NCBI GenBank assembly: GCA_008632985.1
Contig: QPGO01000135.1
Coordinates: 186,001 to 239,181 of the forward strand
Direction of reading: 5' to 3'
DNA from: Psammoneis japonica
Taxonomy: Eukaryota
DNA length: 53,181 nt
The notes beneath the pieces were generated by a model, which made no database searches, was not told the DNA's origin, and saw only the letters and a program-made list of their open reading frames with translations. Position numbers and translations under genes: made by a program. Below are positions 4,604 through 37,182 of this stretch, one piece after another; the stretch's first letter is position 1, and every line of letters starts with the position of its first letter.

Positions 4604-5554
4604 TGAACAAACACCACCATGACAGCTGAGAATTGGGTGCAAGACAAGACAGAGTGTTGAACAGCATCATCAGGTTCTAGAATTGTGAGATGTCATGCTG
4701 CCGAGGCCACCAAATGAGCAATGGTGGACCAATCGCCAATGGTGCATAAACTGCCTACATTCGTGACAGTGTGTCAGCATTTTTTCAGTCCCCTCAAACT
4801 GACACTGGCTCCGCTTGGGCCAGATCGACAGACAAATGCAACCTGATGCTGCCCCATTCCAGGGCAGTGTTTTCATTTTGGGGATGGGAAAAGCTGCACC
4901 TGCATGGCAAACCTGTTCGGTTTGTCCCCTTTTGGGACTCACCACAGGACATGACTTATGATTTCCCGGAGCTTTGGTCCAGGCAACAACTCAGTTAGCA
5001 CGTCCACTAAATTCGTGCTTCCGTCTTCCCAAGCAATGCACACTGTTCCAGTGGCTTGTGCCTCACGAGTCCTGTGACAGGCAATTGCATTGTGCTTCTT
5101 CTTCAAAGTGGACTCTGGTGTAGTTGAGTTCTTGAAGACAGCCTCATTGTCACAGAAAACGTCAGTGGCCCCATCCATGGGGATTCCGAGCATCCGAAGC
5201 TTGTGATGCAAGGCTTCAATTTGCTCCACTGCAGTCTTCATAGCCACAAACTCCGACCCAAAAGTAGAGGACTCTGCGGTGTTCTGCCGCTTAGAGTGGC
5301 ATAAGATGGGCACTCGTTGGATAAATGTCAGGATCCCAGTGTGGGACCTGCGCGTCACACGGCATCCGGCGTGATCAGCATTGACAAAGCAAGCAGTGGT
5401 CACGCCATTCCCGCGTGCCTCCGGCATGTTCGGCTGCATTGGTTCAGCTGCACCAGGGTGACATTCTTCCCAATCGCACTTGGTAAAAGGACTCTCATCA
5501 AAGACAGGCTCAGTGTGGTTGAACACTGGCGCAGACTTAGAGTGAGCCTTCAAG
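4604..5554 (-). mobile_element. 3' end of Copia family A in reverse orientation: RNase H (4939-~5550), PPT (~4789-4799), 3' LTR (4604-4787)
   Basis: ORF 4939..5571 has 'FVNADHAGCRVTRRSHTG', 'ESSTFGSEFVA', 'FCDNEAV', 'LKKKHNAIACHR'. Minus-strand tttgagggga lies just before the LTR. Confidence 0.85.
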
Positions 5555-5740
5555 TGCTGTCCCATTTGCAATCAAGTGCCAAGCTTCCTGTCTGGTCTGC
5601 AGAGTTGTGCGGGCACGTTCGAACCCTTGGCTGTTGATGCCTTGGGTTGCTTGAGAGCAGAGCAATGGGTTGTAAACCCCTGCTGACAAGCCAACCAGAG
5701 GTGGACAAATCTGACAGAATTTGAACAAGAATGACTCACT
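5555..5740 (-). repeat. Deleted LTR fragment of Copia family C
   Basis: 5555-5708 aligns with 15176-15335 and, inverted, with ~29122-29278. Confidence 0.65.
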
Positions 5741-5800
5741 CTTGTCCCACTCCATTCTCCAGCTGATTCCAACACCAATGATGCTGCATGGATCAATGCA

Positions 5801-8800
5801 GTGCACATCACCATGCATGAGTCTCTTCATGACTCTCATCCAGTCTCATCTGACTGTGATTGTGGCACTTTCGAGGTCAATGCCATGCACTTTGAGAAAT
5901 CAGAATGCTGTGGGCAACTTGACACTGGTGCTTCTATCTCGTGCACGGGTGAATGTGACCTCCTTCACTCCCATCGGGAATTTTCTGATGAATTTCCTTG
6001 TCCTCTAGACATGGCCCCTGCTGTAGGATCCAAGGCCATTCCCCATGGTGTTGGTCATCTGCACATCCCTGCCGAAATGGACAATGGTTTTGTTTGCATG
6101 CGGAGTTGCTGCCACCCCGCTCTCTGTTCAACTCTTGTCAATGAATGCAATTTCCTTACTGCCAATGGTGCACGTCGACAAGATTGTGTCACTGAGTGCA
6201 TTCAAAAGTTCCACGACCTCAGAACTTGTCGATTTACTGCGAAACGTTGTTTACGGAAGAGTCAGGACGTCCTCACACGTGGACAACTCATCAATGGAAA
6301 ATGTTTTACTGACCCGTTGATTCCGCCTCAGACGACAGATGCAATTGACACATCGATTGCTCAAGTCAAGGTGGATGACCCTGAATTTGCTGATGAATGT
6401 AATGCTGTCACAGCGCACCTTGTTGAAACACACAAGGATGACAAGCAGGAAGCCCTTCATCAAGAGAAGAAACTCATTCCTCGTTGCCATCAAGACCTGG
6501 AATTCCAGGAATGTGTCGACGACGAGGCTCCAATCCAGTCTCTCAAGGCCAACACCAAATGCTTGCTGTGGCATCAGCATCTTGGTCACCCAAGTGATTC
6601 ACACTTATTTGATGCTCACAAGCATGTTGATGGAGTCCCCAAGTTCTCCAAAGGTCAATCTCCCCTTGACACTTGCCCTGCGTGTGTTCAGGCGAAGCAG
6701 ACCAAGACACCTGCTGGACCTGACACTGCTCGGATGGCTGCTCAACCTTGTCAAGGTCTTGCTGTTGACTTCTCTTTCTCCGGCATGAAGTCTAAAGACT
6801 CTGAACATGCTGTTGATTGTGTTGGTCTCAATGGGGAGACTTGTTGGACACTTGTCTACAACCATTGCTCCCAACATCTCCATGGTGCTGCTCGTGTTTC
6901 CAAAGCCTCGCCGATTAGTTGGCTCAGCCATTTCTTGGACGAACACTCGCCAAATTGTCCTGACAAACATGTGTTTGTGGACCAGGGTGGAGAATTGAAC
7001 TCAAATCCTGAGGTGCAAAGACTTTTTGAAGATGACTTCAGTTGTGACATGCGCCCGACTGGGAAGGATGCCTCCAATCAGAATGGCCCTGTTGAACATG
7101 CCCACTTGACAGTGGCGAATGCAATTTGAGCGCTCTTGATCGGTGCCGATTTTGGCCTCATGCATTCCATCATTGTCTTTGGATTAAGAATGCTGTCCCG
7201 CCCAAGGACAAAGATCGTTCTCCTTTGACAATTGCCACAGGAAAGGTGGATAACTTCAAGGATCTCCGCACATTTGGTTGTCGTGTGTGGGTGCGCTGTT
7301 CTAACCGACGACCCGCCAAACTCAAGTCTAACTCGCGCAAGGGTGTGTTTCTTGTTGGTTGCCTGCCTGACACCACCAAGAATGTCTTGTGGCATGATCC
7401 AGTGACATCATGCATCAAGATTGCCAAGCATGATCATTTTCATGAAGGCATGAATGACCTCCCTCCTGACAAGATTCCACCTGATGTTGTTCATTTACAA
7501 CGTGTCCAGAATGGTGAACCATTGCCTGCTGAACCATCTGAAACAACAGTTGATGATTTTCATTTTACTGGCAATCCTTTTGCCAAGACACTGTCATGGA
7601 CATTGAAAGGATTGAACTCGGACAGCTCCTGTGGCATGACCCTTGACACCAATCCGCTCTACAAGCAGGTTCATTTGTCGGGGATCAACAGTGCGAGTCC
7701 TGCGTCATGCCCATTTTCATCTTTGAAGGCCACGGGGAACAAGGCATTGGGCACATGCATTGCATCGATTGATGGTGCTGACATGTTCACCCCCTGCATG
7801 AACTCCAACGGCTTCACGAGAAGGGCACGGAAAGTTTCAATGTTGTGTTTGCACCTGAGCGGCGCCTTGACTCTCATGAATTACAACGTGCTCTTGTCGA
7901 GCACAACATTTTCTCCCCGCCTCCTGCACCTGATGAGGACCATGTCCCTGAACTTGCCATGGCGGACATCATGCACATTGCTGCGTTGCTGCATCCGGAC
8001 ACGGATTTCTCCGATGTGACCCCAGGTGAACATGTTGAGGAACCGTTTGTTGACTGTGAGATGGCCACTGTCAACCTGTGTGCCATTTCTTCTCACACTG
8101 TTACACCTGAGGAGAAGGCCATTGGCAGTTTTGCACGTCGGCATCTTAAGAATTTAGCTGCTTGGCCTGAATGGCTTGCTGGTGAGAAGAAACAACTTGA
8201 CCAGTTTCATGATCTTGGAATGTTTGGTGCACCCATCCGACGACCACCGGGTGCTGTTGCACTTCGCCCTCATTGGCAACATCAAATCAAACAGGATGGT
8301 GCTCGACGCTCCAGACAGTGTTGCAATGGTTCCCCTTGGGCTGCCCCGGCTTTACACCGCATCCGTTCAACACACTTGTGGTGCATTGAACAACCGATTC
8401 AGCGTCTGTTTTTTGCCATCGCGGCTTCTTTGTCCTGTCGGGTCCACAGTGCAGATGCTCAAGATGCGTGTGCACACTCACCTTGTCCTGCCAATCCTGT
8501 GTACATTGCCATTGACGATGTTTGCGTGAAATGGCACAAGGAACGTTTTGGCATTGACATTGATCATGATGTGGTTTTGCCAATGCGTCATGCCCTCCAA
8601 GGTCATCCTGAATCGGGCGTCTTGTGGGAGAAGCATGTCAACAGCGTCCTTGCTGACGCCAAGCTACTTTTAAAAAGCACCGCACATGACAAGTGCATCC
8701 ACACCTCGACGTTCAATGGAAAGAAGATCCTGTCACTCTGCCAGGTCGATGATTTCTCTATCGCATGTCCGGAGGAATCTTGTGCTGTTGAAATTTTTGA

Positions 8801-9105
8801 GTTGATTGGAAAGGCTCTTCAGACACCGTCTGAGGACAAGCCTCCTTTCAAGTGCCTTGGCCCATGTGATGCTTTCAATGGTGTTGACATTCATCAGTGC
8901 AATGATTCATTGTCTGTCACCTGTCACACCCATCTGGACCATGTCTTCATTTCCCATGGATGGGATAGACTGGCTGAGGGTGAACTTGACACTGATTTCC
9001 ATGCTGTGCCCATTCCAGTTGAGTCAATTGGTTCACTTTGCCGCAAAGTTGGTCCCATGGAAGGGATGGCTGAGCATGATGAACTGGCAAAACAGGCTGG
9101 TTTCA
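5801..9105 (+). mobile_element. pol: Copia family B pol remnant (protease, GAG-pre-integrase, integrase, RT), truncated before RNase H
   Basis: 'QLDTGASISCTG', 'LLWHQHLGHP', 'VDQGGEL', 'SNQNGPVEHAH', 'LRTFGCRVWVR', 'ALQGHPESG', 'QVDDF' in ORFs 5801..7129, 7126..8019 and 7845..9203; frameshifted. Confidence 0.9.
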
Positions 9106-9242
9106 TTGGCATTTTGCTCATGGTGCAAGGCAGGAAAAATCCTGGTCGTGCACGCCTAGAATCGCAGCATGTTTCTACTACAGAAAATTTTTGTCAAAGT
9201 TGAGCTCAAAAAGTTGTCGGACCAAAAATGGCGGTGCCGGCT

Positions 9243-10332
9243 TGTTGCAGCTCACAAAATGATCGAACGAAGAAAGAATCAATGGCACAGAGAAATTGTG
9301 ACCAGCACAAGGCCTCAACCTGTCAGAGCACCAAAAGGACAGAGGCAACAATGGGTCAAAGACTCCCCAAAGACTGGGACAGTGATGCAACACATGCACC
9401 AGTGATCGAGAATGAGAGGATCTCGGATGGAGATCCACGAGGCCATCTAAAAGGGTCTGTCCATCAATCCTGCGGTGCAGTCTGTCTGCATGCCATCATC
9501 CGGTAGACTGACACCAGCATTGATGACATCAGGTGGACACGGCAAGCAGAGCTCCAGCCCAGACCATTGCAGGTGCCCCTGTGAATGATGGGGACATGTG
9601 TTCCAGGGTCAGGAACAGTTTTTGGTCTGGCCAGGTAGAAGTGCCTGGTCTCATGCCTGTGATGGCACACCCAGATGTGCAGACACCCAGATGGCTAAGA
9701 CACTTGGTTGGTGTGACTCGAACCCAAGCCCACTTTGGCATTTGTGACAGAATGTGCCACCATTGCTGACAGATTTCCATTCCCTGACTGAGAAATGGAG
9801 TGATCTTCCAGCACTCATGCCATTGATTTGTCACTGTTGCTGTTTGCTGTTTTGTTGTTCATCGTGCAGGCTGACTGCCAAAATTCCATTCTTCTTAGAT
9901 TTTTGTCACTCCCCATCAACCTGAAACTGTGAATGTCACTCATCCATCTCTTTTCAGTGGCTCCCAGCTTTGCTGATAAATGAACCCCAGAATCAACTCT
10001 TCTCACCACTCATGCATTTGTGTCATTGCAACATTCTCATTGCTCGATGACAGCTCAAGGTTGTTGACAAGGGTCATCAAAACTGTCAATCTGACAGAAA
10101 TTGAAAATGACTGGGTGGAAGAATGACTCCTTGCTGCTGTCTAAACAGCAGATGAGCATCCATGCAGAGACTGTTGCAGGAGCTGAAAGACTGGTGTTGT
10201 TGACATCGGTGCCACTGTTGTCATTCTTGTGAGCCGTGTGGTTTGAAAGCAAACTGCATCGCTCGATGCGCACGGAACTGAGAGCACACATGATTGTGTG
10301 TGATGAACTAAAATCTTGTTCAAATCCTGTCA
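9243..10332 (-). repeat. Long LTR (~1.1 kb) at the 3' end of the minus-strand Copia C-type element
   Basis: On the minus strand the PPT 'aaactggggag' is followed directly by TGACAGGATTTGAACAAG at 10332. The first ~260 bp match 28336, 32162 and 52781. The 9250-9560 part is similar to 27505-27800. The distal end is uncertain. Confidence 0.55.
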
Positions 10333-10405
10333 CTCCCCAGTTTGCTTGAGGGGTCAACAGCGATAGATTCAAGGTCAGATTGGCAGAAAGCCTCAGGATT
10401 GAAGT

Positions 10406-13400
10406 TTAAAACATCAGAGGATGAAGGAGGTTCCAGACTTGGGAGCAACCCCAGTGCTTGACAAGGATGTCAGCTGGGTTGCGGGAGCCTTCGATGAAAT
10501 GAAACTCAAGGAAACCGGAGGCAATTGCCTCACACACATGATGGAACAAGAGGGCAGTGTGTTGCTTGTGCAACTTGGAGTGCGGGATAGCAGCACTGTC
10601 CACAACCGACTTGTTCTCCCCGAACATGTGACATGTTTCACGAATGGGGATGCCAAGGTGATGTAAAGTGTTGTGCAGATCAATGATCTGCTCAATGCAC
10701 GTCCTTGCGGCTACAAACCAATGTCCACACATGGCAGTCTTGACTGTTGCTTGTTTCTTGGAGAACCAATCAGCTGGAAACCAATTGAGGAAATGAAGGA
10801 TGCCGGTGACGGAGTGTCCGGTGAGCATACAATGGATCAAGTTTGCATCGACATAGTGTGTCATGGTGACAAACTTGCCAAGTGGCTCGGGCACATCTTG
10901 CGGGAGCAGCTCTTCTACCTCCCCACACTCTGATTGGGCCCAGTCACACATGGGCTTAGGAAGGTCCAAACAGTCGGGCTCCTTGGTGCACACTCGGAGG
11001 GCACCATGACGCATCTTGGAGAGGAATCTGCAGACAAGTTTGGCACAGTCTAGGTAGCCCTGTCGGGGTGCTGCACGGAAGCCAGACAGAGACATGACAG
11101 CCGCAGCAATGTCAATGTGACCAAGGGATGCGGCCCATTGCAGGGAACCAACAAAGGATTGAAATTGGTGGATGCCATCCGGTTCAAGTAATTTGGAAGT
11201 GTCAAGCTCAGGGTGGTCTCCCTTGTCAAGGGATGAAAGCACATCAGTGCGGGGTTGGGGTCAGTTGTCAACCATGCGCTCAATGTACTTGCGGGGGGCA
11301 AAGCACAGGGTGCCATCTGGATCGTGGGTGAAATCGCAACCAAGATGGAACTCCAACAGTCCAGTGCCCTTGAGCTTGAACTTGCATTTCTACATGAGGG
11401 TGTCTGCAAAATCCTGGGGGTCCTTCATGGTGAAGGCCAGGTCGTCCACATGTGCTGCCACGCATTCGTGGTGTGCACCATTCCCATGCAGCCAGATGTC
11501 GGGTTCAGCTTTGCACGGGAAGAAGCCTTCAGCAAGCAAGCAATCGGCAAAGTGTTCATGCCATCTGAGGCCAGAGCTGCGGAGTCCGTGTAAGGCCTTG
11601 TGGATGACAAGGATGTGTCCTTCTAGCTTGCCAAATTCAGGGCCTGCTGCAATGTACAGTTTCTCCTTGGTTGCAGCTTTGAGATGGGCATTCCCAATGT
11701 GGGTGGCCCAAGTCTCTAGTTCGTTAAGTTCGGCTAGGAAGATCATCATTTGCAGGCCACAAAGAGACACTGCTCTGGAATGGACACTATCGACGGGCAC
11801 GTCTGTGAGGTGTCCATCGGCAACAAGCCTTGCTTTGTGCCGTTCGTCATGTTTGACGTCGCAGACAAGATGCACCTGGATCTTCTTGTGTCCCAATGGG
11901 GCACTGGAATCTTTGTAATGTCCGCAGTCATGGAAGACCTCGCACTCATCAAGCTGAGTCATCTTGAGGTCCGTTGCGTCTCCCCACTTGCGGTTGCCGT
12001 TGTGCTCATCAAGGGCCAAGGCGTGCTTGTAGTCCCATGGCACTTCATGCCCGTCAATCGTCCTTGGCAATGATGGCAAGGGGTTCAGACGTGATCTCCC
12101 CATTCTCCCATTCAAGCATGACATTGTAGCTTGAGCCTTTCCAAGAGGGATCATGGGGTTGCAATGGTCCTTCGTGCGATGCGATGCATCGGAACTTCCA
12201 GAGGGTGGTGTCCTCATCTTCTTGTTCAATGTGGTGCATGATGTCATTGTGGGCTGGGACTTCCTCGCATTCGTCATTGTTGATGGAGCAAATGAACTTG
12301 ACCAGTTCAGGATTGTTTCTGATTTTCCAGTCATGGTCTTCAACGGCTTTGATGATGCGGGCTCTGTGGCGTTGTCCATCCTCTTGTGGCTTCATGAGGA
12401 AGGCACATCTGATGATGTCCTCGGGGTCAAAGACTGGCATTTTGGGCATCCTGATGGCCTCCCCATCTGGTGAATCTGGTGAATCCTTGGAGTTGTGGCA
12501 GAATTTGATGATGGGTTCAGCAGATTTCTTGTCAGGAGGATCAAGACACAGGTTTGGAGCAGACGGATCACGGTTGGAACGCACGTTGGAACAGCAGAGA
12601 ATCTTCTGAGTGTCGTCAGAAAGAATCTTGAACGTCATTTGGTGGCCCACGTGTTTGGCAATGCCAACAAAGCAACCACGTAATTCACGGGATTTGGACG
12701 GCCAGTTGGAATCATCCAGGTGACAACACATGGGTTCCCACCATTGAAAATGGAGGAGCGGGCTGATGTCAGGAGTAGAGCTGGACAGCACTTTGGTGGG
12801 GGTGCACCAGCACAGCTTGGCAGACGCTGTGTGGTTGAGCACGAAGCACACCTGCATCAGGGCGAGTGGCCAAGTGCAAGCCGGAGACCCAAAGCAATCC
12901 ATGATGGTGTTGGCCATGGTCTTCACAGTTTGGTGGTGAGGTTCAGCAAAATTCTGATGCTGTTGATGAGGCTCGCTTTGCCAACTGGACATGAAGAGGG
13001 CACGGAGGATGCCAAGAACCTTGTTGCTGATCTCAACTTGAGCACGGTCGCTGATGAGCTTGGACGGGGCACCATGATTGTGAACATGGTCCTCAAGCAT
13101 GTTGACAAATTCTCTGTCGGTCTTCATTCCGCACACGTCCGTGACAAGGGATTCGGTGCCAACAAAGAGCTGGGTGCTGGTGCAGCCGGAGTCAACGGCG
13201 GCGGTGTCAGAGTGCACCATGTCAGTGGCAATGGGTTCGTTGCATTGGTGAACATTTAGAGACGGGTTGGGCAACTTTTGCGCCTTTTTCAAGTGAGTGC
13301 TGGCTGGCATGCGGGCACATTGTGTCGTGCAATCAAAAGTGTGGCAAACAGTGTCCTTTGGGAGAAAGCCAAAACAAGGGCACAGAGACTTAAGTCAGGA

Positions 13401-15040
13401 TCCTTTGGATTAATCTCGTGCTCATGGCATTCATAGAAGAAATCGGACGTCGGGAGCAGGTGGTCATCAAGGATGGAGTCTGTAAGCATGGTGTTGTTGA
13501 CAACATGACGGTGGTGACAGTTGCCGAACTCATCAAAGAGGTTGGCAGTTGGGTCAGCCTGGAGGTCAGATGCAGCATCATGCCACATCTCATTGTTGGT
13601 GAACTGGTGGTTGAGGACAGATGGGTCCCAGGTGTCATCACCAGTGAGGACAACATGTGGCAAGGTGTTCCATTTGGCATCAGTGTGCGGACGTATGGCG
13701 ATGCACGGAAGGCCACCTTTGATGTCAATGGGGATGACGTGTCCATCAATGGTGGTGATGCATGGCAGTTGCCGGTGTGGGCGGTGCACCAGCCAAGGAT
13801 GATGGCCTTGGTGGACTGGGGCAAGGTGTCCCAAATGCGATGATGGTCCGGCGGGATGTGATGCCATTGTTCCCTGGTGAGGGATTTGCTGCAAGTCTGT
13901 GCAGCACAAGCTTGGACAACATCAACATCACTGTCGACATGTTCGTGTGTGGTGTGGAGCTGAGCATGAGGAGCTGTCTTGGGGGTGATGGTGCTGTCGC
14001 ACTGTGCTGCTGCAGAAAGCAGGAGCCCACAGTGCTGTTCGTAAGAAAGACCTCTGCCATTCTGTGTGTGAAACTGATTGGCCTGATTCTTTACCGAACA
14101 AAGTTCTTCGATGGGATGAACGGCGTTCTCAAGCATGACACGTTTCCGGCCATCACAGAAGTGGTCCGCACCCAGAATGAGAGCTTCACACTTGCAAAGC
14201 TGGTCTTGCCAGTGAAGCATGAAGGCATGAGTGGATCCTTTCCAGGTGCCATCACCAAGGCGGGCAGTGGTGAGGTGCAAGAGAAGGGTTGAGGACTCCA
14301 GGGATGTGCGAGCAGATGCAAGTGTGCACTTGGACAGGTCACGATACACTGCTTGAGCATCAGAGGAGCCGACATGTTCACGAACAAGTGCCTTGCCTTT
14401 GTCATTCTGCAAGATGCGTTCAAATGCGGCGAACATGCATTTCTGTTGTTCGTTGAACAGGGCCTTGTCCTCAGCTGTAGAGGGCTTGTACATTGGATCA
14501 AGAATGCGGTTGACGTCCTGGGAGTGGGCCTGTGCAACGATGGAGTTGTGCCACTTGTGCCACTGTTTGTCGGACTTGAGAGTCGCGAAGGTGAGAGGGT
14601 CACGGTTGATGCCTCATTTTAAGTCACGCACAGGATCATGTGGTTTGGGTGGCAATGAGCCAGGAGTGGGAGCAGATGGTGCTGCACCCATGGAAAGGGA
14701 CGCTGCGCACTAAGGACTAAGATGACAGTCAGTGAACTCCTCATGTGTGAACAAGTGAGGGTCGTTGCTGACATTGGTGCCACCACGCGATTTTGCCATG
14801 TGCAGACTGATCAGCACAGCCATCTGTGCTTTGTGACCACGTGGCAAGGGGATCTGATTTTCGCCGTTGTTGTGAACCAGGGCATCCAGTTGCATCGGAG
14901 TAAAAGTGAAGAGATCCTGATGCAAGTCAGTTCCGTCAATGTTGAGGGCGGAATGCAATGGACTGTCTGTGGCTTGATTCAGAACAGTGCCTAGAATGTG
15001 CTCAAGGCCATCAATTTGTTGCTGCCTGGTGAGAACCATG
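10406..15040 (-). mobile_element. Copia family C gag-pol, decayed, with internal deletions
   Basis: gag begins 'MVLTRQQQIDGLEHILG'. Integrase 'LISDRAQVEIS', 'SEPHQQHQNFAE'. RT 'DVKHDERHKARLVADGHLT', 'KALHGLRSSG', 'HVDDL'. RNase H 'YVDANL', 'WFSKKQATV', 'NPADIL'. Confidence 0.9.
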
Positions 15041-15175
15041 TTGCAACTGGGTGGGTGTTGGGACTGGCTAGAGTGGGAGGGTGAGCTTGAAATAACTTGA
15101 AACTTGACTTGAATCTTGACTTGAATCTTGACTTGAAGTCTTGAACAATCTTGCAAGTCAGAAGCCACCGGGCTG

Positions 15176-16400
15176 TGATGTCCCATTTGCAGTGAAGTGC
15201 TGAGCTTCCCATCCAGTCCATGGAGTTGTGCCGGCACATCCAAACCTGCAGCTGGCGATGCTTTGGGTTGTCTGAGAGCAGAGCAACGGGTTAAAAACCC
15301 CTGCATCTGCTGACAAGCTAACCAGAGGTGGACAAGGCCTCCAAACCGTTGTCATTTTGCATTGGTTGGACAACCCGATCAGGCCGGCCAAATTTGGCGC
15401 TGTGGATGGACAAACAAATGTGGGAAATGCACCCTTGCCCCAATGCAGGCTACAATCACGAACTGCTTCCTCTCACAGTTTTCCTCGTGGACCTTGCAGG
15501 ACTGTAGAAGACCAGCAATCCGGTGTAGATACGAGGCGGTAGACTTGGCGTACGTGGAGCAAGGCCAGAGTCAAGGGTTTGTATCGTGTGCATGTGGACG
15601 TGAGCGGATGGATTGGTCTCTCTGCCAACCAGGGTAGAGTCCGCCATGTGGAATCCAGAATCTCGGATGTCTGAGAATTTGGGAATTCCTGACCAAACAA
15701 ACATCCGTTGAATAAATGTGTCCAATGATGGGAGGCATTGGATAAATCCAAATGCACAGATTTAAGGCTGGATCGATGTTTAGCGGCATTTTTTTAAACA
15801 GCTCGTGATTCTACAATTTGCTCCTCGCACTTCGCCCGTGTTATTTTGCGATGCATCTGAGCACCCCCAAACACTTGTGTGTGTGTCTAGCCCCCATCAG
15901 GGCTGTTAGACCTTGATATGAACTACACTTGTCAACCTTCAAACGCCAATTATTGCATTGGGTGCGGTTGCCACATTCGACAAACCGCTGTTTTTCGCCA
16001 AAATCGGACTGTTTGTGGTAGATGAGCTGCAACTTTCCAGGAAAGGCCGACAATTGGCGTTTGACTGGCTGCAGACATGTCTGCGGTCGTCATTCTAGAG
16101 ATCCCGAACCTTCACATTCATTGTGCATGCATTCCATGACATCTTGCGAATGGACAAAGTTCGACCCATCGCTGAACATGTTTTTGGCGAACGTGCGCAT
16201 TGTCAGTGTGAAGAATCCGGGTTGTTTTTAAACATTTACGAGTTCTAATGAAATCGACCACCAAACATCGATCCATCCTTAATCCAGCATCCAGCAGTGA
16301 AGAAGGTAGACACATGCTTCCACCGCCAACCGTGTGCATCATCGAAAAATTTCTCGACAACAATGACGAACGCTCAATGGACAAGAATGAGCATCAGAGG
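15176..16400 (-). repeat. 5' LTR of Copia C (copy 1), interrupted by a MITE and truncated
   Basis: Collinear (inverted) with 28600-29278 once 15762-16278 is removed. Confidence 0.65.
15766..16278. mobile_element. MITE (513 bp), 16-bp TIR, TTAA target-site duplication (Kolobok-like GG...CC ends)
   Basis: TTAA|GGCTGGATCGATGTTT ... AAACATCGATCCATCC|TTAA. The empty site (ggaTTGAatc) is present in the paralogous LTR at 28699-28708. Confidence 0.85.
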
Positions 16401-16575
16401 GCGCAACATGGTGATCTGGCTTTGCCTTTTCATTGTGATTTTTGTCTCTTTAATGGATGAAATTTTTACATTTTCAAACCTCATTAGTTGTGTAGCTGGT
16501 GAAAAATTTTAATCTGTGACAGCCAATTTTTTTAAACTGCAGAGACCTCTTTTCATCTGTGAGAAAAAACCTTGA

Positions 16576-27504: not shown

Positions 27505-28335
27505 TGATCGGCTCACAAAACAAATGAATTGAAACAGAAAGTGTGGCACAGAGTTCAGTGGCATGGCGCAAGGCCACAACCTGACAGAACACCGAGAAGG
27601 TCAATGAGGACAGCAGCACGATAGACCAACGAAGCACTGGGACTGTGATGACATGAGTGCTAGTAGAAAGAAGTGAGAGGCAGATCTCAGAGAGATCTGC
27701 TCGTCTGTCTAAAAGGACTGGTCATCATCCGCACACAGTCTGTCCAATGCAGGACAGACAGGCTGACAATGTGAAGATGTCAAGTGCGCAACGAGTGCTG
27801 GGGCAACACAATCATTAAGACAGCCACCCACTGAGAAGTCGTGGTGCTTCACAAATTCTCTTGCTAGTTTGGGTGACAAGTTCAAATGCTCTGGCAAGGT
27901 GTTGGTTCCCCTGCTGCATCATGGGCACAGCAAAACCTGGAGAGTGCATTTCGTGGCTCAAACCAAACATTTGAGGAGCCTCTCCTTTCAGCAATTGTCG
28001 CTGTTTTCTTAGATAAACCAGCCTGAGAGCCCCAGATGACTGGCTCAGGCATGTGTTGCATCAACAATGGAGTGCCAATAATTGCAACATCACTTAAAGA
28101 ACTTCTTACATTAGTTTGGTTGGATGAGCCCCCGATCCATCAAAAATCTCCATTCCAACAGCTTCTGGCATCTCAAGCACTTGAAAAACTTTGTTGTTCA
28201 TTCCAACCACCAACAATTGTTGCCATTGACCACGCATGGTGACAAAGGAGTCAACGGTGGCATGCACCTCTGCTGGTGAGGTCTTGGGTACATTCACACT
28301 CTGTTGGCGGCAACGGCAATGGGCGAATGTGGGTG
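27505..28335 (-). repeat. Non-coding repeat, probably the distal part of another long LTR
   Basis: Block-wise similarity to 9250-9560; 27718-28335 is duplicated at 31546-32161; no coherent ORF. Confidence 0.45.
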
Positions 28336-29278
28336 TGACAGGATTTAAACAAGATTTTAGTTTATTGCACATAATTGTGTGCTCTTAGTTCCGCACGCGT
28401 CACGCGATGTAGTTTGCTTTCGAGCCACACGGCTCACAAGAATGACAACAGCAGTGCTGACATCAACGACACCAGTCTTTCGGCTCCTGCAACCGTCTCT
28501 GCACGGAGACTCATCTGCCATTTAGACAGCAGCAAGGAGCAATTGTTTTCTTCCATCCAGTCATCTTCAATTTCTGTCAGATTAACAGTCTCGTTCAATT
28601 TCATCCATTGAGTGTTCATCACAGTCATCGAGAAAATTTCAACGACGCGCATCGTTGGTGGTGGAAGTACACACCCACCTTCTTCACTGCTGAATGTTGG
28701 ATTGAATCTTTACGTTTGGATTTGTCCAACACCTGCCGTCCTTGGATGTGTTTATTCAACGTTGGTCAGGAATTCCCGAACTCTCAGACATCCGAGATTC
28801 CGGGTTCCCTGCAGCAGATTCTACCCTGGTTGGCAGACAGACCAATCCATCCGCTAGCCTTCACGTGCACACAATATAATCGTCTGACTCTGGCCCTGCC
28901 CCATGCACGCCAAGTCTACTGCCTCGTATCTACACCGGATTACTGGTCTTCTACAGTTCTACAAGGTCCACGGGGACGACTGCGAGAGGAAGTAGTTAGT
29001 GATTACAGCCTACGTTGGGGCAAGGGTGCATTTCCCATGTTTGTTTGTCCCTCCACAGCACCAAATTTGGCCGGCCCGATCGGGTTATCCAACCGACATA
29101 AAACAAGAATGGTTCAGAGGTCTTGTCCACCTCTAGTTAGCTTGTCAGCAGGGGTTTTTAACCCGTTGCTCTCCGATCTCAGGCAACCCAAAGTGTCACC
29201 AGCTGTGGGTTCGGACGTGCTGGCACAACTCTGCAGACCGGACAGGAAGCTTGGCATTTAATTACAAACAGGACATCA
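28336..29278 (+). repeat. 5' LTR (~943 bp) of Copia C copy 2
   Basis: Starts TGACAGGATTT, like the PPT-adjacent copy at 10332, and ends ...GGACATCA about 125 bp before the gag ATG. The 3' end is supported by the fragment ending at 5555. Confidence 0.65.
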
Positions 29279-29403
29279 TAGCCTGGCGGCTTCTGACTTG
29301 TGAGATAGTTCAAGACTTCAAGTCAAGATTCAAGTCAAGTTTTCAAGTTGTTTCAAGCTCACCCTCCAACTCTGGCTAGTCCCAACACTTGCCTGGTTGC
29401 AAC

Positions 29404-31545
29404 ATGGTTCTCACCAGGCAGCAACAAATCGATGGCCTCGAGCACATTCTAGGCACTGTTCTGAATCAAGCTGCAGAGGATCCATTGCGCTCAGCCCTCA
29501 GCATTGACGGCACTGACTCGCGCCAGGATCTCTTCACTTTTACTCTGATGCAACTGGATGCCCTGGTTTACAACGATGGCACCAATCAAATGCCCTTGCC
29601 ACGCGGCTACAAAGCACAGATGGCTGCGCTGATTAGTCTGTACACAGTAAAAGTGCACAGCAGCACCGATGTCAGCAATGATCCCCACTTGTTCACACTT
29701 GAGGAGTGCACTGACTGTCATCTTAGTCCCAAGCATGTGGCGTCCCTCTCCATGGGCACAGCGCCATCTGCTCCCACTCCTGGCTCGTTGCCACCAAAAC
29801 CACATGACCCCGTGCGTGACTTTAAATGAGGAATCAAACATGGTCCACTTGCCTTTGCGACTCTCACGTCAGACAAACTGTGGCACACGTGGCACACCTC
29901 TGTTGTTGCACAGGCCCACTCCCAGGACGTCGACCACATTCTCGATCCAATGTACAAGCCCTCTGCAGCTGAGGACAAGGCCCTGTTCGATGATCAACAG
30001 AAGTGCATGTTCGCCACATTCAAATGCATCTTGCAGAATGACAAAGGCAAGGCACTTGTTCATGAACATGTTGGCTCCTCTGATGCTCAAGCAGTGTGTC
30101 GTGACCTGTCCAAGTGCACCCTTGCATCTGCTCATGCATCCCTGGAGTCCTCGACCCTTCTCATGTACCTCACCACTGCCTGCCTTGGTGATGGCAGCTG
30201 GAAAGGATCCACTCATGCCTTCACACTTCACTGGCAGGACCAGCTTTGCAAGTGTGAAGCTCTCATCAAGGGTGCGGACCACTTCTCTGATGGCCAGAAA
30301 TGCATCATACTTGAGAACACCGTTCATCCCATCAAAGAACTCTGATTGGTCAAGAATCAGGCTGATCAGTTCTGCACACACAATGGCATGGGTCTTTCAC
30401 ATGAACAGTGCTGTGGGCTCCTGCTTTCAGCAGCGGCTCAGTGCAACAGCACATTCACCCCCAAGACGGCTCCACGCGCCCCACGCTGTGCCATCTACAA
30501 ACATGACCTGGCTCCCGACAACCCTGATGACGATGTGTTCTTTGACATTGACAGTGACATTGACATCATTCAGGCATGTGCTGCTCAAACCCATGGTTCT
30601 TCTCTCACCAGGGAACAGTGGTGCCACATTTTGCCAGACCACCAGCACATTTGGGACAGCCTGCCACAGTCCACCAAGGCTGCCATCCTTGGATTGCGCA
30701 CCCCCTCTTCTGGCAAATGCCACGAGTCAGAAGCTGTCAGCCTCCACGACCATCTTGGAAGCGATGGCGACATCGATTTGTACGCCAACACTCATGATCT
30801 TACCTCAACCACTGCACCACCCACTGATGCACACGACAAAATGGACAACAACCTCATCCTGGCAAATGTCATGAAGTGCAAGCCCTCTGCCGCCTGGTGA
30901 TCTGCAGCGTCTTCTTTCACCCAACATCAGCCTGCTCCTGCGCTTTCAATGGTGGGAACTTGTGTGCTGCCACCTCAACAATTCTGACTGGCCGTCCGAA
31001 TCCTGCAAGTTGCCTGGTTGCTTCGTTGGCATTGCCAAACATGTCGGTCATTAGATGACATTCAAGATCCTCACTGACCACACTCAGAAGATTCTCTGCC
31101 GCTTGAACGTACATTCCACCCATGATCCGTCCACCCCAAACCTGCGTCTTGACCCTCCTGATGCAGAATCTGCTGATCCTGTCATTAAATTCTGACATGA
31201 CTCCAAGGATTCCCCAGATTAACCAGATGGGGAGGGGATCAGGATGCCCAAAATGCCAGTCTTTGACCCCGAGGATGTCATCGGACGCACCTTCCTCATG
31301 AAGCCACAAGAGGACAGACAATGCCACAGAGCCTGCATCGTCAAAGCCATTGAGGACCACATCTGGAAAATTCAAGACAACCCCGAACTAGTCAAGTTCA
31401 TTTGCTCCATCAACAATGACGAACATGAGGAAGTCCTGGCCTGCAATGACATCATGCACCACATCAAGCAAGAAGACGAGGACACCACCCTCTGGAAGTT
31501 CCAATGCCTTGCATCGCATGAAGGACCATTGTAACCTCATGATCC
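29404..31545 (+). mobile_element. Copia family C copy 2: gag plus post-integrase fragment (large deletion at ~30915)
   Basis: Proteins align with 12140-15040 ('MVLTRQQQ', 'MYKPSAAEDKALF', 'MPKMPVFDPED'); premature stops. Confidence 0.85.
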
Positions 31546-32409
31546 CTGGTCATCATCCGCACACAGTCTGTCCATTGCAGGACAGACAGGCTGACAATGT
31601 GAAGATGTCAAGTGTGCAATGAGTGCTGGGGCAACACAATCATTATGACAGCCACCCACTGAGAAGTTGTGGTGCTTCACAAATTGTCTTGCTAGTTTGG
31701 GTGATAAGTTCAAATGCTCTGGCAAGGTGTTGGTTCCCCTGCTGCATCATGGGCACAGCAAAACCTGGAGAGTGCGTTTCGTGGCTCAAACCAAACATTT
31801 GAGGAGCCTCTCCTTTCAGCAATTGTCTCTGTTTTCTTAGATGAACCAGCCTGAGAGCCCCAGATGACTGGCTCAGGCATGTGTTGCATCAACAATGGAA
31901 TGCCAACAATTACAACATCACTTAAAGAACTTCTTACATTAGTTTGGTTGGATGAGCCCCTGATCCATCAAAAATCTCCATTCCAACAGCTTCCGGCATC
32001 TCAAGCACTTGAAAAACTTTGTTGTTCATTCCAACCACCAACAATTATTGCCATTGACCACGCATGGTGATAAAGGAGTCAACGGTGGCATGCACCTCTG
32101 CTGGTGAGGTCTTGGGCACATTCGCACTCTGTTGGCTAAACGGCAATGGGCAAATGTGGGTGTGACAGGATTTAAACAAGATTTTAGTTTATCACACATA
32201 ATTATGTGTGCTCTGAGTTCTGCATGCGTCGCGCGATGCAGTTTGCTTTCGAGCCACACGGCTCACAAGAATAACAACAGCAGCACCGATGTCAACAACA
32301 CCAGTCTTTCAGCTCCTGCAACGGTCTCTGCATGGAGACTCATCTGCTGTTTAGACAGCAGTAAGGAGTAATTGTTTTCTTCCACCCAGTCATCTTCAAT
32401 TTCTGTCAG
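31546..32409 (+). repeat. Direct ~864-bp duplication of 27718-28580
   Basis: Near-identical sequence and ORF translations; includes the LTR start junction. Confidence 0.9.
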
Positions 32410-33319
32410 GGTGAGTCAGTGAGGTGCAAAAAACATCACTCAAATCGAAACTTTGAGGAGGAATCGCCACACAGTGTCCTTCCATTGGGGGTAAAAGAGA
32501 CTGTTGTACCCCGATTCCTCCTCAATTGTCAACATTGACGACCTCGGAACAGTACATTCATCATGGTTGATGGCTTTTTTTCCCACACAAAAAGCACGGA
32601 GAACGCGGATGACGGACAAGCAAAAATCAAAAACATTCAGTCGATTTGTTGGAGCTGTGCAATGCAACTCTCAAGTGCAGTCTGCTTGCTCTAACATGTG
32701 CTGGGGGTACATACGAAATTTCAGTATATGTTATAGAGAGGGTGTGTGTTATCCCTCCCTGGCACAAATCTACGTAAATTGATCCTGCACACGTAGAAGC
32801 TGCACGAGGTTTTACACAGGGCCCCAGCAGATCTTGCGCATGCGCCAGTGCACCAAAAGTAATAAGAAAGGGCATTATTTACAGGTAACGGGGAAAAAAT
32901 GGTCTCCATACGGTGCAGTCCACACCGGTACTACTATGTACATACGCAGCACAGTGGCCATCGCCGAACACCTCTCTCGTCTGTCGTCACTGCAGCACTC
33001 GTTGGCCCTTTTCAAAGAGTCCCTCCCTTCATCAATTCTTTGCTTCTACCACAAAGACGACCAGGACTAGTTCTTAGAGGTATGTCATTGCCAATGAGGA
33101 TGTTTAGAGTCATTGCAAGTCTAGTCTAATGAGCCTTCATCACCTCAAACATGGTCTTAGAACAGTGATGTCTGGCCTTCGTCCGTGGGGGTCAACGCAC
33201 GCACGCACACGCATGCATTCATTCCTTCCAAAGTCGTACAGCTCATAAAGCCTATTGTCATCCTTCAGTACGTAGGGTGTTCTTGTCTGGTGAAGAAGGC
33301 GAGAGGGTAAAGAGGAACG

Positions 33320-35370
33320 ATGGAAACGATGAGATGGGCCGAGCCGGGTTCGCCGCATGACGGTGGTGGGCCGCCCACTATCAAGAACCACTCGGTGACC
33401 TACTTCAATGCGTAAGTACTCCAATCGCTTCCCTGCCGCAATTCCACCTTCTATCTCTCTATCTCACAATCGACGATTCAACAACACCGCTTTGTAAGCC
33501 ACCTTTATTGCTTTGGAGGTTATGATGGGAGGCGCAATCACATGACTTTATTGCTTTACTCGATTCACTATCAGACATGGATTGCTCCCCTTACGATTCA
33601 CGCTGGGGAAGAGGCATCTTTTGCAACTGGCTCTCCAGGTGATGTTGTTCTTACGGGCACACCTCCACCCGGCCGAAACGGCCACACAGCGACCTTAGCG
33701 GTAGATCCTGGGTTCCACGAGAATGGACGAATTATTATTATCGGTGGGTGGCTGGGAACTGGACCCCTGGCGGCGTCCGACATGTATGTTCTTGATGTTA
33801 CTAATTGCCAAGGCCGCCATTCCCTTCGATGGTATCAGCCAGTTGTAAAAGGAACCCCCCCTGGCCCGTGCAACATGCACAGTGCAGATTATCTTGCGTC
33901 GCGCAGGGAAGTGTATGTGTTCCGTGGAGGGAACGGGCGTGAATACCTGAATGACCTACACGCGCTTAACGTCGACACGTACACTTGGCGGAAAGTGACT
34001 ACCTCAGGATCTTTGCCCCAACAGAGAGCTAATCATTCGAGCGCAGTTCTCGATGAAACCGCTGAATTGTTCATTTTTGGCGGGTGGTAAGTGGAATATG
34101 TTCGTTCTTATTGCGTTGGAACGTGCTGCTTTAACGCTGTCCTGTCTGAACTCCTTTCTTAAAGGAACGGAAAGGAACGTCTGAACGACATCCATGTACT
34201 GAACACGGAGAATTCCACATGGACCTGCCCCGAAGTCGATGGCGTCCTACCTCACCCCCGGGCTGGAATGACCTTGACGGCGCTTCGGGGACGTTTGTAC
34301 CTTTTCGGAGGCAGTGGAACGAGTTCGAAATGCTTCCAAGATCTCCAAATACTCGACCGCAAGGATATGGTATGTTTTGCGCTCCCAGTGTTCCATTGAA
34401 TTGCAGTGTATTGACTCGCCTCTTCTGTGATTTGTAGAGATGGTTGGACGTGGTGCAGCACGAGGAGGCTCCAGCGACGGATTCGTTCATCCGACACGTA
34501 GATTCCAATGGTAATCGTGATTCAGCGACGCGATCACTGAGATCAAACGGCAGCCAGGCGCGAGGTGCAACCAGGGACGAGACGAACACTACGCGAGTCG
34601 GCATCGCTGACAACGCTATGTCTGAATCATCGTCCCCTACGAACAACGGCGTAATAGCCCCATTTGGGTTGGGCTTTGATGCTACCCCCAACCCTAATGA
34701 CGAAGATGGTCTGGCAACAGTTGTTGTTCACGGGCCTGGTCCAGGTCGCAGAGCGGGACACACTGCCACTGCTGTGAATCGGAGGATATATGTTTTCGGT
34801 GGATCATGTGGATCCGACTATCTGAATGACTTCTTTGTACTTGATACCGACCCCCCTCCTCGAGCCATCGTTTCAGAACCCACAAGCCTGCAGCGTTTAG
34901 AGCGATCTCTGCGTCGTTTTCACGACAATGACGAGTTTTCTGATGTGACGTTTGTGGTGGAGGGTCAGAGAGTGTACGGGCATAAGTTGGTTCTATCGGT
35001 TGTCTCGGATTGCTTTCGTGCGATGTTCACAACTGGCTTCCGAGAAAGTGAGGCTGGAGCAGAGATCGAAATTCCAAATTGCTCGTATCATGCTTTTCTG
35101 GCCATGATGGAATATATATATACTGGGCAGACGCCGATTGCTGAAGTGTCTCGTGAAGGTAGCGAAGGGATAGATAAAGTCGTGGATTTGTTGGAACTTG
35201 CTGATCAATTTTTTCTGGACCATTTAAAGCAACTGTGCGAGAAGATACTTCAACCGATGGTGAATCATGACACGGCAGAGTACTTGCTTCATGTGTCGCA
35301 GAAAACAAATGCACCTCAGCTGCTATCAGTATGTGAACACTACCAGAGGAATCAAGGCGGCGTTAGATAA
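33320..35370 (+). CDS. Kelch-repeat plus BTB/POZ protein (LZTR1-like architecture); join(33320..33411,33499..34086,34165..34369,34438..35370), 605 aa
   Basis: Three GT-AG introns (GTAAGT, GTAAGT, GTATGT donors) give a continuous 1818-nt frame. Kelch motifs 'LYCFGGYDG', 'IIIIGGW', 'LFIFGGWNG', 'LYLFGGSG', 'IYVFGGS'. BTB 'FSDVTFVVEGQRVYGHKLVLS...FRAMF...EYIYTG'. Confidence 0.93.
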
Positions 35371-35752
35371 TGGTCTCCATCATGGCTTTTTGGATATCTT
35401 CAAGTGTTAATGTAGTCATGAATGAGTTTGGAAGCATTGTGATTGTACTTTATGTTGGGGATTGGCTTGGTCGTGTCTCTTAACATTCATACTCTACCGA
35501 AACTTCTCCTAGGGCCCTATTAGCTATGCTTATTGCTTATGTTTAACAATCCACTAGTCTCGTTGAACACGATGCAGTTGGCGATGTGTAATGACGTGTG
35601 TTCATGCGGTTCCAACTCGAGCACTTGGCATCCGAGCACCCCACATCTTTTTCTGGTCAACAGGAGCTGCTTAGCTCTAGCCGCCATCAGTCTTGACGTA
35701 CGACAAGCGGGATAACCTACTGAAAAAATGAACCAGATATTCACCGCAGCAG

Positions 35753-36610
35753 TCAAAATTGCCCTGTCAGAAATGCCCACAACTCAACATTCAATACGTC
35801 AAAGTTTTCTTCGTCGCAAAGAGGTTCATTATCGAACGTGTCACAGGTTCCGGTTGAGCCCCGTTGAAAATCCTGCTCAATGCATAAACCGAACGAGCCC
35901 TTATCTCCACCACCTCCAAACGCCAACATTTTATGACCGACATCACAAAGCTGGATGTAACGATTAAGCCCAGTCCACTTGAAGACACGGAGTTGTCCTT
36001 CGGTGAAACGGTACAAAAAGGCCTGGGCACTTCCATAGAAACACGCACCTACTGCAAGCGAATGATGCTGAGACACCCAAGGGCTGTCCGCGAAGCCTCC
36101 AAAGACATCCCCACGGGTTGTTTTTAGTACCAATAGCGTTCTCGCAGCCCCTTCAACTAGGTGCATGAAGGCATCGAAGGAGTCGCCGTCGCGCGCCAAA
36201 CTGTACAGGCGACTCCAGCGGCAGTGAGCTACACTTGCCGGAAGAGCGTCGTTCGCAATTCTAAGCATCTGATCTTCGCTAAGTATGTACGGACAAAATG
36301 GGTGAGAGCTATTAGGCTCGTCATCAATGCGGATGCCAGCAATCCAGGTGTCAGTTCGCTCATTGTCCATCTCAACGCTCACTGACATCCCCTTGCCCGA
36401 CATTGTTGTAGTCGGTATGGATACTTTCAGATCTACACATGACACTGGTGGACACGCTGCGACTGCCGACCCTTGTTGAAGCCGTCTTCGTTGATCTTCG
36501 ACTTGAGTCTCAAGCAAATGTCGCTGACGCCTCTCACGCTGTAGCTGAAGAAACCTCATCCCTGCTCCAAAGAAGCCGATTTCCGATGACGCCGCAGCGT
36601 CATCCGTCAT
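35753..36610 (-). CDS. TLDc-domain protein (OXR1/TLDc family), 285 aa
   Basis: 'WSRLYSLARDGDSF', 'GDVFGGF', 'FYGSAQAFLY', 'LAFGGG', 'GSTGTCDTFDNEPL', 'VELWAF'; first ATG at 36610. Confidence 0.92.
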   Translation of the reverse strand: MTDDAAASSEIGFFGAGMRFLQLQRERRQRHLLETQVEDQRRRLQQGSAVAACPPVSCVDLKVSIPTTTMSGKGMSVSVEMDNERTDTWIAGIRIDDEPNSSHPFCPYILSEDQMLRIANDALPASVAHCRWSRLYSLARDGDSFDAFMHLVEGAARTLLVLKTTRGDVFGGFADSPWVSQHHSLAVGACFYGSAQAFLYRFTEGQLRVFKWTGLNRYIQLCDVGHKMLAFGGGGDKGSFGLCIEQDFQRGSTGTCDTFDNEPLCDEENFDVLNVELWAFLTGQF

Positions 36611-36677
36611 TCCCACGCAATGCTCTTAGTCAACACTAATTCTACCGTAAAACAAACTGACTCTCTGTTCTGTCGCT

Positions 36678-36727
36678 CTACAGTGCAGTAGCTACTGTAG
36701 CTACAGTAGAGTACAGTACGGTAGAGA
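36678..36727. promoter_or_regulatory. CTACAGTAG/CTACTGTAG-type short repeat cluster upstream of the TLDc gene
   Basis: ctacagtgcagtagctactgtagctacagtagagtacagtacggtagag, ~70 bp upstream of the ATG. A regulatory role is inferred from position only. Confidence 0.35.
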
Positions 36728-36783
36728 GGAGAACTCGTACGCGACCATTTTTTTGTCAGCGCTAAGACTGTATATTTCATTAA

Positions 36784-37182
36784 GGGGGGTCACATGCTAC
36801 TTTTTTAGCTCGAATTTGGCCGAATGGCTCGTGATTTTCATGATTTTTCCTGAATTTCACCGTGCTTCACCGTGGCAATCCATGCCATGCCATCAGTCTG
36901 AGGGAGGTTGTCCGTCCTTCAACTCTCATCCATTTTGTGTTCGTTGTGTGTCAAAGGTCACAACATGTGCGCCAAACAATGTTTGAGGACGGACCACTGC
37001 ATTGTGAAGAAATGTTGAAATTGCCATCATCGTCGTGCTTCAATCACGGTGCCTCATGTTCTCATTTTCGTGCACGAATTGTGTGAGTGTGAACAATTTT
37101 TGTGTTCAAAAATGAGCACTGTGAATGACCTTGTTCAAATGCCATGAAAATTCCAGGACAACAAACACAGGGATGACCCCCC
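36784..37182. mobile_element. Putative MITE (~400 bp) with GGGGGGTCA TIR and TTAA/TTGA flanks
   Basis: TTAA|GGGGGGTCA ... TGACCCCCC|TTGA; the TIR is short. Confidence 0.5.

Follow-up and report, generated by a model that had tools for sequence, protein, structure and literature searches.

Probable erosion of TpA dinucleotides in an integrated, dead Ty1/copia-type element of the diatom Psammoneis japonica

A degraded Ty1/copia-type retrotransposon, here called element A, occupies the minus strand at 10409..15039 of a 53,181-nucleotide stretch of Psammoneis japonica DNA (contig QPGO01000135.1, positions 186,001 to 239,181, assembly GCA_008632985.1), to which we refer as the window. Its reverse transcriptase (RT) core at 11441-11700 very probably belongs to a dead element that was eroded after integration by a process turning TpA into CpA or TpG, in combination with CpG decay. 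The direction of change, its dinucleotide specificity, its presence on both strands, its action after insertion and the sparing of neighbouring genes all appear directly in the sequences compared. From these features we infer a process that may be enzyme-driven and directed at repeats or at heterochromatin. Such a process would convert A:T into G:C at TpA on both strands of integrated repeat DNA, would run alongside ordinary CpG decay (CpG to TpG or CpA) and would cover repeat DNA as a domain that ends near host genes.

Tyrosine codons in the reverse transcriptase and along element A

The motifs that drew attention to this locus lie within a single stop-to-stop frame of 333 amino acids (11390-12391, minus strand), which matches the Pfam family RVT_2 (PF07727) with an E-value of 1.1e-14 and 55.1 bits, the cut-off being 31.6. 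A preliminary description of the window had read HHECVAAHVDD, KALHGL and IGNAHL here, and the codons it gave are indeed present at 11441-11698 of the minus strand. HHECVAAHVDD (11473-11441; CAC CAC GAA TGC GTG GCA GCA CAT GTG GAC GAC) covers the motif C region of RT, which in relatives reads x-Y-E-Y-[IV]-A-V-Y-V-D-D, the three tyrosines appearing as H, C and H in element A. KALHGL (11599-11582) carries CAC for the tyrosine of the relatives' KALYGL, and IGNAHL (11698-11681) carries CAT for that of their IGNAYL.

A protein search with this frame returned 414 relatives at E ≤ 0.001 among 1588 candidates. We used the best 120, which reach up to 64% identity, all carry PF07727 and include many polyproteins of 1850-1990 residues. 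Because the query was the mutated frame itself, this set is not biased towards tyrosine. In the alignment of these best 120 of 414, the position of H in NAHL is Y in 119 and C in 1, that in KALHGL is Y in 118 and C in 2, and that in HVDD is Y in 117, C in 2 and H in 1, where the description had given NAYL or NAFL, KALYGL and YVDD for Copia RT. The first tyrosine of YEY, H in element A, is Y in 116 relatives, with one each of C, W, H and G; the second, C in element A, is Y in 107, M in 11 and C in 2. All five changed tyrosine codons at the named motifs are CAY or TGY, as the description had proposed for changes from TAY. In one detail we differ from it: the column of the first H of HH (11473) is variable (I, V or L) and is silent on direction. 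The valine preceding YVDD, V in 116/120 relatives, is encoded here by GCA, as expected for GTA>GCA. At 11699..11701 (minus strand), the column of the catalytic aspartate of motif A is CAC (His), while D is found in all 52 full-length relatives described below and in 118/120 of the set above. This Asp>His replacement is a G>C transversion and falls outside the TpA process.

The few relatives departing from tyrosine in YVDD (3/120 with Cys or His) include the three most tyrosine-poor proteins of the set, P0118, P0060 and P0057, in which tyrosine makes up 2.2-2.9% of residues compared with a mean of 4.0% for the 120. These database proteins carry KALCGL, GNACL, HVDD or CVDD.

The same pattern extends along the whole element. 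Its limits were set by tblastn of 52 full-length relatives (1800-2000 amino acids) against the window; the resulting high-scoring segment pairs, together with the RVT_2 match, outline a putative polyprotein region from gag to RNase H. Over four reading-frame segments, these 4.6 kb are colinear with residues 1-1832 of the 1845-residue relative P0064. Elements of the Ty1/copia type encode one polyprotein in which integrase precedes RT (gag-PR-INT-RT-RNase H); Pfam gave no match to integrase, protease or gag families in the other frames of element A, and the relatives themselves list only PF07727. Placing the codons of element A on an alignment of these 52 sequences, we counted columns conserved in at least 90% of them. 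As 282 of the 1694 mapped codons (12058-13851) fell in two frames, these were dropped, leaving 1412 codons and 474 conserved columns in a cleaned map. Only 2 of its 26 conserved tyrosines are kept; His replaces 10, Cys 9, Phe 2, and Asp, a stop and Gln one each. Other residues are largely intact (Phe 22/24, Trp 18/19, His 17/18, Leu 43/45), with the exception of arginine, which is kept at 14 of 40 columns and replaced by Cys at 11, His at 8 and Gln at 4. The raw map, before the two-frame codons were dropped, has 29 tyrosine columns, of which 3 are kept, 11 are His and 9 Cys.

Tyrosine is unique among amino acids in that every one of its codons (TAY) has TpA in frame. A process acting at TpA is therefore read as Tyr>His when it takes the form of T>C on the coding strand and as Tyr>Cys when it takes that of A>G. 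The neighbouring base matters greatly. In the cleaned map, A>G at codon position 2 was found in 9/26 cases after T and in 0/122 after C, A or G (Fisher p 4e-8), and T>C at codon position 1 in 10/26 before A and in 1/48 before T or G (p 6e-5); the corresponding figures of the raw map are 9/29 vs 3/146 and 11/29 vs 1/50. At the same tyrosine columns, 79 metagenomic relatives supply a baseline of 2158 cells, of which 1907 are Tyr, 47 His and 7 Cys. With H or C in 19/26 columns of element A and in 54/2158 cells of these relatives, the changes at the motifs are far above chance. Two processes are thus apparent from the codon changes, namely TpA to CpA or TpG, seen as Tyr>His/Cys, and CpG to TpG or CpA, seen as Arg>Cys/His/Gln. 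Across element A the tyrosine outcomes number 15 His and 16 Cys and show no run structure (18 runs, 16.4 expected). Some tyrosine columns hold what would be products of two steps: the cleaned map has TGA at 11263 and CAG at 12854, and the dropped two-frame stretch has TGG at 12143.

Codon usage leads in the same direction. We compared element A with those 44 of the 79 relatives in which a frame stays open for at least 1000 codons, here called intact. Tyrosine accounts for 0.65% of codons in element A and for 3.87 ± 0.41% (minimum 2.78) in intact relatives, while His (7.2% vs 3.4 ± 0.4%) and Cys (3.96% vs 1.04 ± 0.29%) are in excess. The preliminary description had suggested tabulating the fates of tyrosine, GTA, ATA, CTA and TTA codons, and all of these are depleted: the share of TTA and CTA among Leu codons is 0.07 in element A and 0.22 in intact relatives, that of ATA among Ile codons 0.014 and 0.14, and that of GTA among Val codons 0.036 and 0.17. 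Junctions between a codon ending in T and one beginning with A amount to 0.92 per 100 in element A and 6.1 in intact relatives. The ratio of observed to expected TA, the measure used from here on for all dinucleotides, is 0.15 in element A and 0.68 ± 0.14 (minimum 0.33) in the 79 relatives, and because their DNA has this value the family is not intrinsically TA-poor. Element A also has a CG of 0.50 and a CA/TG of 1.69. Taken together, the conservation of tyrosine in both outgroup sets (52 full-length and 120 relatives), the context-dependent rates and the codon census against intact relatives strongly support the proposal of the description that TA is the ancestral state, with the changes running from TAY to CAY or TGY.

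One metagenome contig of the same Copia group (L048, 2561 bases) bears the same signature in a sequence from outside this genome: 7 of 20 conserved tyrosines are changed (His 5, Cys 2) and TA is 0.33, with only 7% of other conserved columns altered.

There is no doubt that element A is dead: its reading frame changes at least three times and is interrupted by stops at 11392, 11263 and 14616. The preliminary description had held that a few hits at catalytic motifs inactivated the element, a view that the extent of the damage does not sustain: changes affect 24/26 conserved tyrosines, 26/40 conserved arginines and 102/474 conserved residues overall, besides the frameshifts, the stops and the transversion at the motif-A aspartate, and the order of these lesions is not recoverable from this copy. 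It is plausible that Tyr>His in YVDD would alone abolish RT activity; among the papers listed on tyrosine mutagenesis of YXDD we found nothing usable on Tyr>His.

Erasure of TpA has a peculiar consequence for reading frames, since it replaces TAA by CAA or TGA, replaces TAG by CAG or TGG, and makes no sense codon a stop. Per 1000 trinucleotide positions on both strands, depleted DNA of the window has 3.8 TAA and 2.6 TAG compared with 9.1 and 9.4 in the host-gene island described below, and TGA stands at 25.0 compared with 19.9. For this reason element A keeps frames of 284-446 codons, and long antisense frames occur as well, e.g., one of 251 amino acids at 11163-11918 of the plus strand. Gene callers may report such long frames of dead repeats as proteins, and tyrosine-poor, His/Cys-rich "reverse transcriptases" are already present in public sets.

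Timing and extent of dinucleotide loss in the window

A sister copy of the same family, element B, lies on the plus strand at 27718..32409, with 81-83% DNA identity to element A and a TA of 0.28. An internal deletion has taken out its RT and RNase H, and it retains a pair of long terminal repeats (LTRs) of 863 and 864 bp (27718-28580 and 31546-32409) that are 94.6% identical. The pair differs by 41 substitutions and 3 indel columns. Among the substitutions, 11 oppose TA to CA or TG and 15 oppose CG to TG or CA; 8 form 4 adjacent doubles of CA vs TG, 7 are transversions and 3 are single transitions of other kinds. The doubles indicate independent hits on a single ancestral dinucleotide. From shared and one-sided sites we estimate, roughly and on small numbers, that about 0.33 of the TpA and 0.43 of the CpG have gone from each LTR. 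Positions outside any YpR (pyrimidine-purine) dinucleotide are nearly untouched, with 2 transitions and 1 transversion in 422. Since the LTRs of element B were identical at insertion and now differ, the process continued after insertion. This divergence, the hits on both strands and a domain extending into flanking non-coding DNA favour a process that acts on chromosomal DNA over editing of RNA or cDNA before integration.

Comparison of elements A and B gives a similar picture over 2601 aligned columns, with 332 transitions and 90 transversions. As many as 253 of the 332 transitions are changes of YpR state, including 36 between TA and CA or TG, 97 between CG and CA or TG, and 60 in CA/TG doubles. 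At shared tyrosine columns the states of A and B often differ (CAC/TGC, TAT/TGT, CAC/TAC), a sign that each copy was hit independently. The outcomes in element B are skewed, 8 Cys to 1 His (binomial p 0.039), a strand bias that would fit single events working along one strand.

The depletion is a feature of nearly the entire window, in which TA is 0.19, CG 0.43, CA 1.67 and TG 1.62. In steps of 2 kb TA ranges from 0.04 to 0.41 except at 32-36 kb, and per kb it ranges from 0.02 to 0.44 in depleted DNA. Outside the host-gene island, deficits of TA and CG rise together (48 one-kb windows; Spearman 0.63, p 1.5e-6). The surviving TpAs are not a random sample of contexts. Compared with the DNA of the 79 relatives, YTAR survivors are enriched (TTAA 3.0-fold, TTAG/CTAA 2.15-fold, CTAG 1.8-fold) and RTAY survivors are nearly absent (ATAT 0.12, ATAC/GTAT 0.28), a skew that may reflect a flank preference of the mutator. 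This comparison, of window positions 1-32409 and 37001-53181 with loci L001-L079, is rough, its baseline being coding DNA that excludes in-frame TAA and TAG.

The exception is an island of host genes at 32692..36806, the only coordinates within which TpA is dense. Its genes are represented by Kelch/BTB frames on the plus strand (33416-35370) and, on the minus strand, by a TLDc frame (35753-36625) whose protein has as named relatives, at 37-49% identity, pennate diatoms (Fragilaria, Amphora, Nitzschia, Pseudo-nitzschia and a metagenome-assembled genome of Bacillariaceae). TA is 0.5-0.8 and CG 0.8-1.1 in the island, and within this window TpA depletion is confined to mobile DNA. On the left, the TpA-poor state extends about 150-280 bp past the end of the element B LTR (32409); on the right, a TpA-free gap of 468 bp begins at 36807, approximately 180 bp past the high-coordinate end of the TLDc frame. 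Both conserved tyrosines of the host genes are kept (2/2), a number too small to carry weight. TpA erosion thus appears as a property of the surrounding repeat DNA and not of the RT gene. The edges of the TpA-poor domain are sharp (32410-32692 and 36806-37274).

Several other features complete the window. The sole LTR remnant of element A, of approximately 255 bp, lies on the minus strand at 10091..10345 and matches the final ~255 bp of the element B LTRs at 84-88% identity. Neither blastn nor a search for direct repeats in 8800-17500 recovered a 5′ LTR, and element A is undatable from its own LTRs because only this remnant remains. At 4939..5571 (minus strand) there is a fragment of RNase H that comes from another Copia family. 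As the preliminary description had noted, it has IACHR (5085-5071, minus strand; Cys codon TGT at 5079-5077) in place of IAYHR: the Cys column is Y in 101, F in 23 and W in 6 of 138 aligned relatives, and the frame of the fragment has 0 Tyr in 210 residues. A second Copia-type element, unrelated to element A, is found at 5735-9203 on the plus strand through matches to gag_pre-integrs, SH3_retrovirus and, below threshold, RVT_2; it is as TpA-poor as the rest. An inverted repeat of ~370 bp and 72% identity (15830-16197 and 16659-17025) stands beside the 5′ side of element A, and a tandem duplication of ~110 bp and 94% identity is located at 50837-51054.

We also compared the element A region (10000-16000) with one public sample, run X1, in which 8073 contig pieces match it at ≥80% identity, 863 of them at ≥99% and 2566 under 90%. 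Judging from these counts, the family of element A is very abundant in that sample. Variable places over element A are transitions in 1011 of 1186 cases (about 85%), in all four directions. At position 12251, other copies, making up 63% of contig depth, read A on the plus strand, corresponding to TAC (Tyr), where the window has CAC; this agrees with action on chromosomal DNA.

Competing explanations and possible mechanism

Several points weigh against reading the locus as an element eroded by TpA conversion after integration. The reading is drawn from one assembled sequence and its relatives; neither an enzyme nor a modification nor a mutation in progress was seen. Protein identity to these relatives is only about 60%, and the immediate ancestor of element A is not among them. 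The clean count leaves out the 282/1694 mapped codons covered by two frames, the host-gene control for tyrosine retention is tiny (2/2 kept), and the excess of CA and TG is not due to TpA loss alone, as CpG decay contributes too. The comparison loci were fished partly with the pattern YEY[IV][AG]VYV, one of two peptide patterns, which favours copies unmutated at that motif. Finally, the pieces of run X1 are contigs, none of those listed spans the locus as a long near-identical piece, and, as the 40 of about 1200 variable places displayed include none inside 11441-11700, the motif bases are neither confirmed nor contradicted by it.

An origin of the changes before integration would require that RNA or cDNA (complementary DNA) was edited, by ADAR-like or ADAT-like A-to-I conversion or by cDNA damage, and that already mutated copies were inserted. 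ADAR-type editing does prefer U before the edited A, according to the available part of a preprint (10.64898/2026.01.13.699255), and some tyrosine columns share a mutated state in A and B, e.g., TGC/TGC, which could be inherited. However, the LTRs of element B were identical at insertion and differ at 11 TpA and 15 CpG sites, A and B differ in state at the same ancestral tyrosine codons, and editing of sense RNA gives A>G (Tyr>Cys) only, while element A has 15 His and 16 Cys. Moreover, every repeat in the window is depleted, on either strand, up to about 150-280 bp past an LTR end. We consider this origin very unlikely. Still less likely is neutral decay of an old pseudogene under a high transition bias, with Tyr>His and Tyr>Cys being simply the two transitions available to TAY. 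Both changes are transitions and the copy is old, as indicated by 90 transversions relative to B in 2601 columns. Nevertheless, the same transitions are 15-fold or more rarer in other contexts (0/122 and 1/48 vs 9/26 and 10/26), LTR positions outside YpR have 2 transitions in 422, and only 54/2158 tyrosine cells are H or C across the 79 relatives. The chance that HVDD, KALHGL and NAHL are native, functional motifs of this Copia lineage, or that TA avoidance was selected as a codon or dinucleotide preference, is close to nil. The tyrosine of YVDD is H in 1/120 and C in 2/120 relatives, but these exceptions are the most tyrosine-poor proteins of the set. Element A itself has frame changes, stops and a lost motif-A aspartate, while TA is 0.5-0.8 in neighbouring host genes and 0.68 ± 0.14 in intact relatives. 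The preliminary description had named intact copies with HVDD and KALHGL as the finding that would speak against it; among the 120 relatives, a set to which same-genome copies with identical LTRs do not belong, no full-length open frame combines both.

A technical origin is a further candidate. Systematic miscalls at methylated motifs are known in nanopore data, and a modified TpA (together with 5-methylcytosine at CpG) could, in an incompletely polished long-read assembly, have caused G to be called for A and C for T. In line with this, the TG and CA outcomes at TpA in element A resemble a coin toss in the runs test, and run X1 lacks the locus as one long near-identical contig, with 0.44 of sampled words found. 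On the other hand, independent public sequences carry the same signature (contig L048 and proteins P0118, P0060 and P0057), and 863/8073 contig pieces of run X1 are at least 99% alike. TpA loss also scales with CpG loss (Spearman 0.63) and with apparent age (TA 0.28 in B and 0.15 in A), and an artefact would account poorly for the strand bias of element B, 8 Cys to 1 His, and for the two-step derivatives at tyrosine columns (TGA at 11263, CAG at 12854 and, in the dropped stretch, TGG at 12143). Real de novo TpA mutations were measured in lines of Bigelowiella natans, as reported in the available part of the preprint mentioned above (10.64898/2026.01.13.699255). We give an artefact as slim a chance as editing before integration, but regard it as the chief risk that is left.

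If erosion at TpA after integration is real, its simplest and likeliest chemistry would be adenine deamination in DNA, a proposal that we hold tentatively. Adenine would be deaminated to hypoxanthine, which pairs with C, and TA>TG and TA>CA would be the same event on one or the other strand. Alternatively, an identical footprint would result if thymine were modified so as to mispair with G. It is conceivable, although we would not call it probable, that diatoms possess a dedicated DNA-editing defence directed at repeats or heterochromatin, either a TpA-specific adenine deaminase or a thymine modifier, which would kill retrotransposons by tyrosine missense and not by stops. If so, the defence would be shared by a stramenopile and a rhizarian (B. 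natans) and hence ancient in the SAR (stramenopile-alveolate-rhizarian) supergroup, and the bias between YTAR and RTAY flanks would be the recognition site of the enzyme. Diatoms are transformable and editable, and the enzyme could be sought in them by knock-out. The count of His and Cys at conserved tyrosine columns, in turn, requires no ancestral DNA to polarise and quantify the process, whatever the genome or metagenome.

Comparison with known systems

Repeat-induced point mutation (RIP), found in Neurospora and other Pezizomycotina, changes C:G to T:A at CpA and thereby creates TpA and stop codons. It resembles what is seen in the window in producing dinucleotide-specific transitions in repeats and mobile DNA, after integration and on both strands, with most genes spared and transposons killed. 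Direction and chemistry are the opposite, however: the window erases TpA, and with it TAA and TAG, and the defining C:G>T:A change at CpA is not what it displays. In animals, retroviruses and retroelements are hypermutated by APOBEC3 (G>A) and ADAR (A>G), which act on single-stranded cDNA or RNA. These systems likewise inactivate retroelements through context-dependent transitions of the deaminase type, and ADAR prefers U before the edited A. They differ in acting before integration with a one-strand signature, while in the window changes fall on both strands and the two LTRs of element B became different after their insertion. CpG decay, by deamination of 5-methylcytosine in methylated transposons, is the second component in the window (CG 0.43; Arg>Cys/His/Gln at 23/40 conserved arginine columns), but it is unable to yield Tyr>His/Cys or to remove TpA. 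Methylation of transposable elements has been described in diatoms (PMC9998398, in its available part). That same part of the article, which deals with diatom DNA methyltransferases, mentions RIP only for fungal relatives of DNMT4 and reports no RIP-like footprint in diatoms. Our literature search, chiefly of titles and abstract openings, found no report of a TpA-erasing process in diatoms.

The closest parallel is a TpA-specific hypermutation of integrated DNA of nucleocytoplasmic large DNA viruses and virophages in B. natans (Mettrop et al., bioRxiv 10.64898/2026.01.13.699255), for which we draw on the available part of the preprint. There, 230/231 de novo substitutions in two integrated viral regions change A to G or T to C, every one of these at TpA, and such mutations occur in some mutation-accumulation lines only. 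The authors describe 124 clusters of windows that are poor in TpA and rich in CpA and TpG, find reverse-transcriptase and DDE domains over-represented in TpA-poor coding sequences, and propose DNA adenine deamination, naming an ADAT2-like candidate. On that account, B. natans and our window share the change of A:T to G:C at TpA giving TpG or CpA, foreign or mobile DNA as the target, and depletion of TpA coupled to enrichment of CpA and TpG in clustered tracts. They differ in host, a chlorarachniophyte (rhizarian) in one case and a diatom (stramenopile) in the other. They differ also in degree, as far as the available text goes: TA is 0.45 in the B. natans viral region, while LTR retrotransposons of the window are near saturation, at 0.02-0.44 per kb, and here strong CpG decay accompanies TpA loss, unlike in B. 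natans. The process was measured there in real time, whereas in the window it is known from its footprint alone. The window is, then, a well-polarised instance of TpA-erasing hypermutation, a process known from a single preprint in another lineage. If real, it would represent a second, phylogenetically distant mutator aimed at mobile DNA, with a chemistry opposite to that of RIP.

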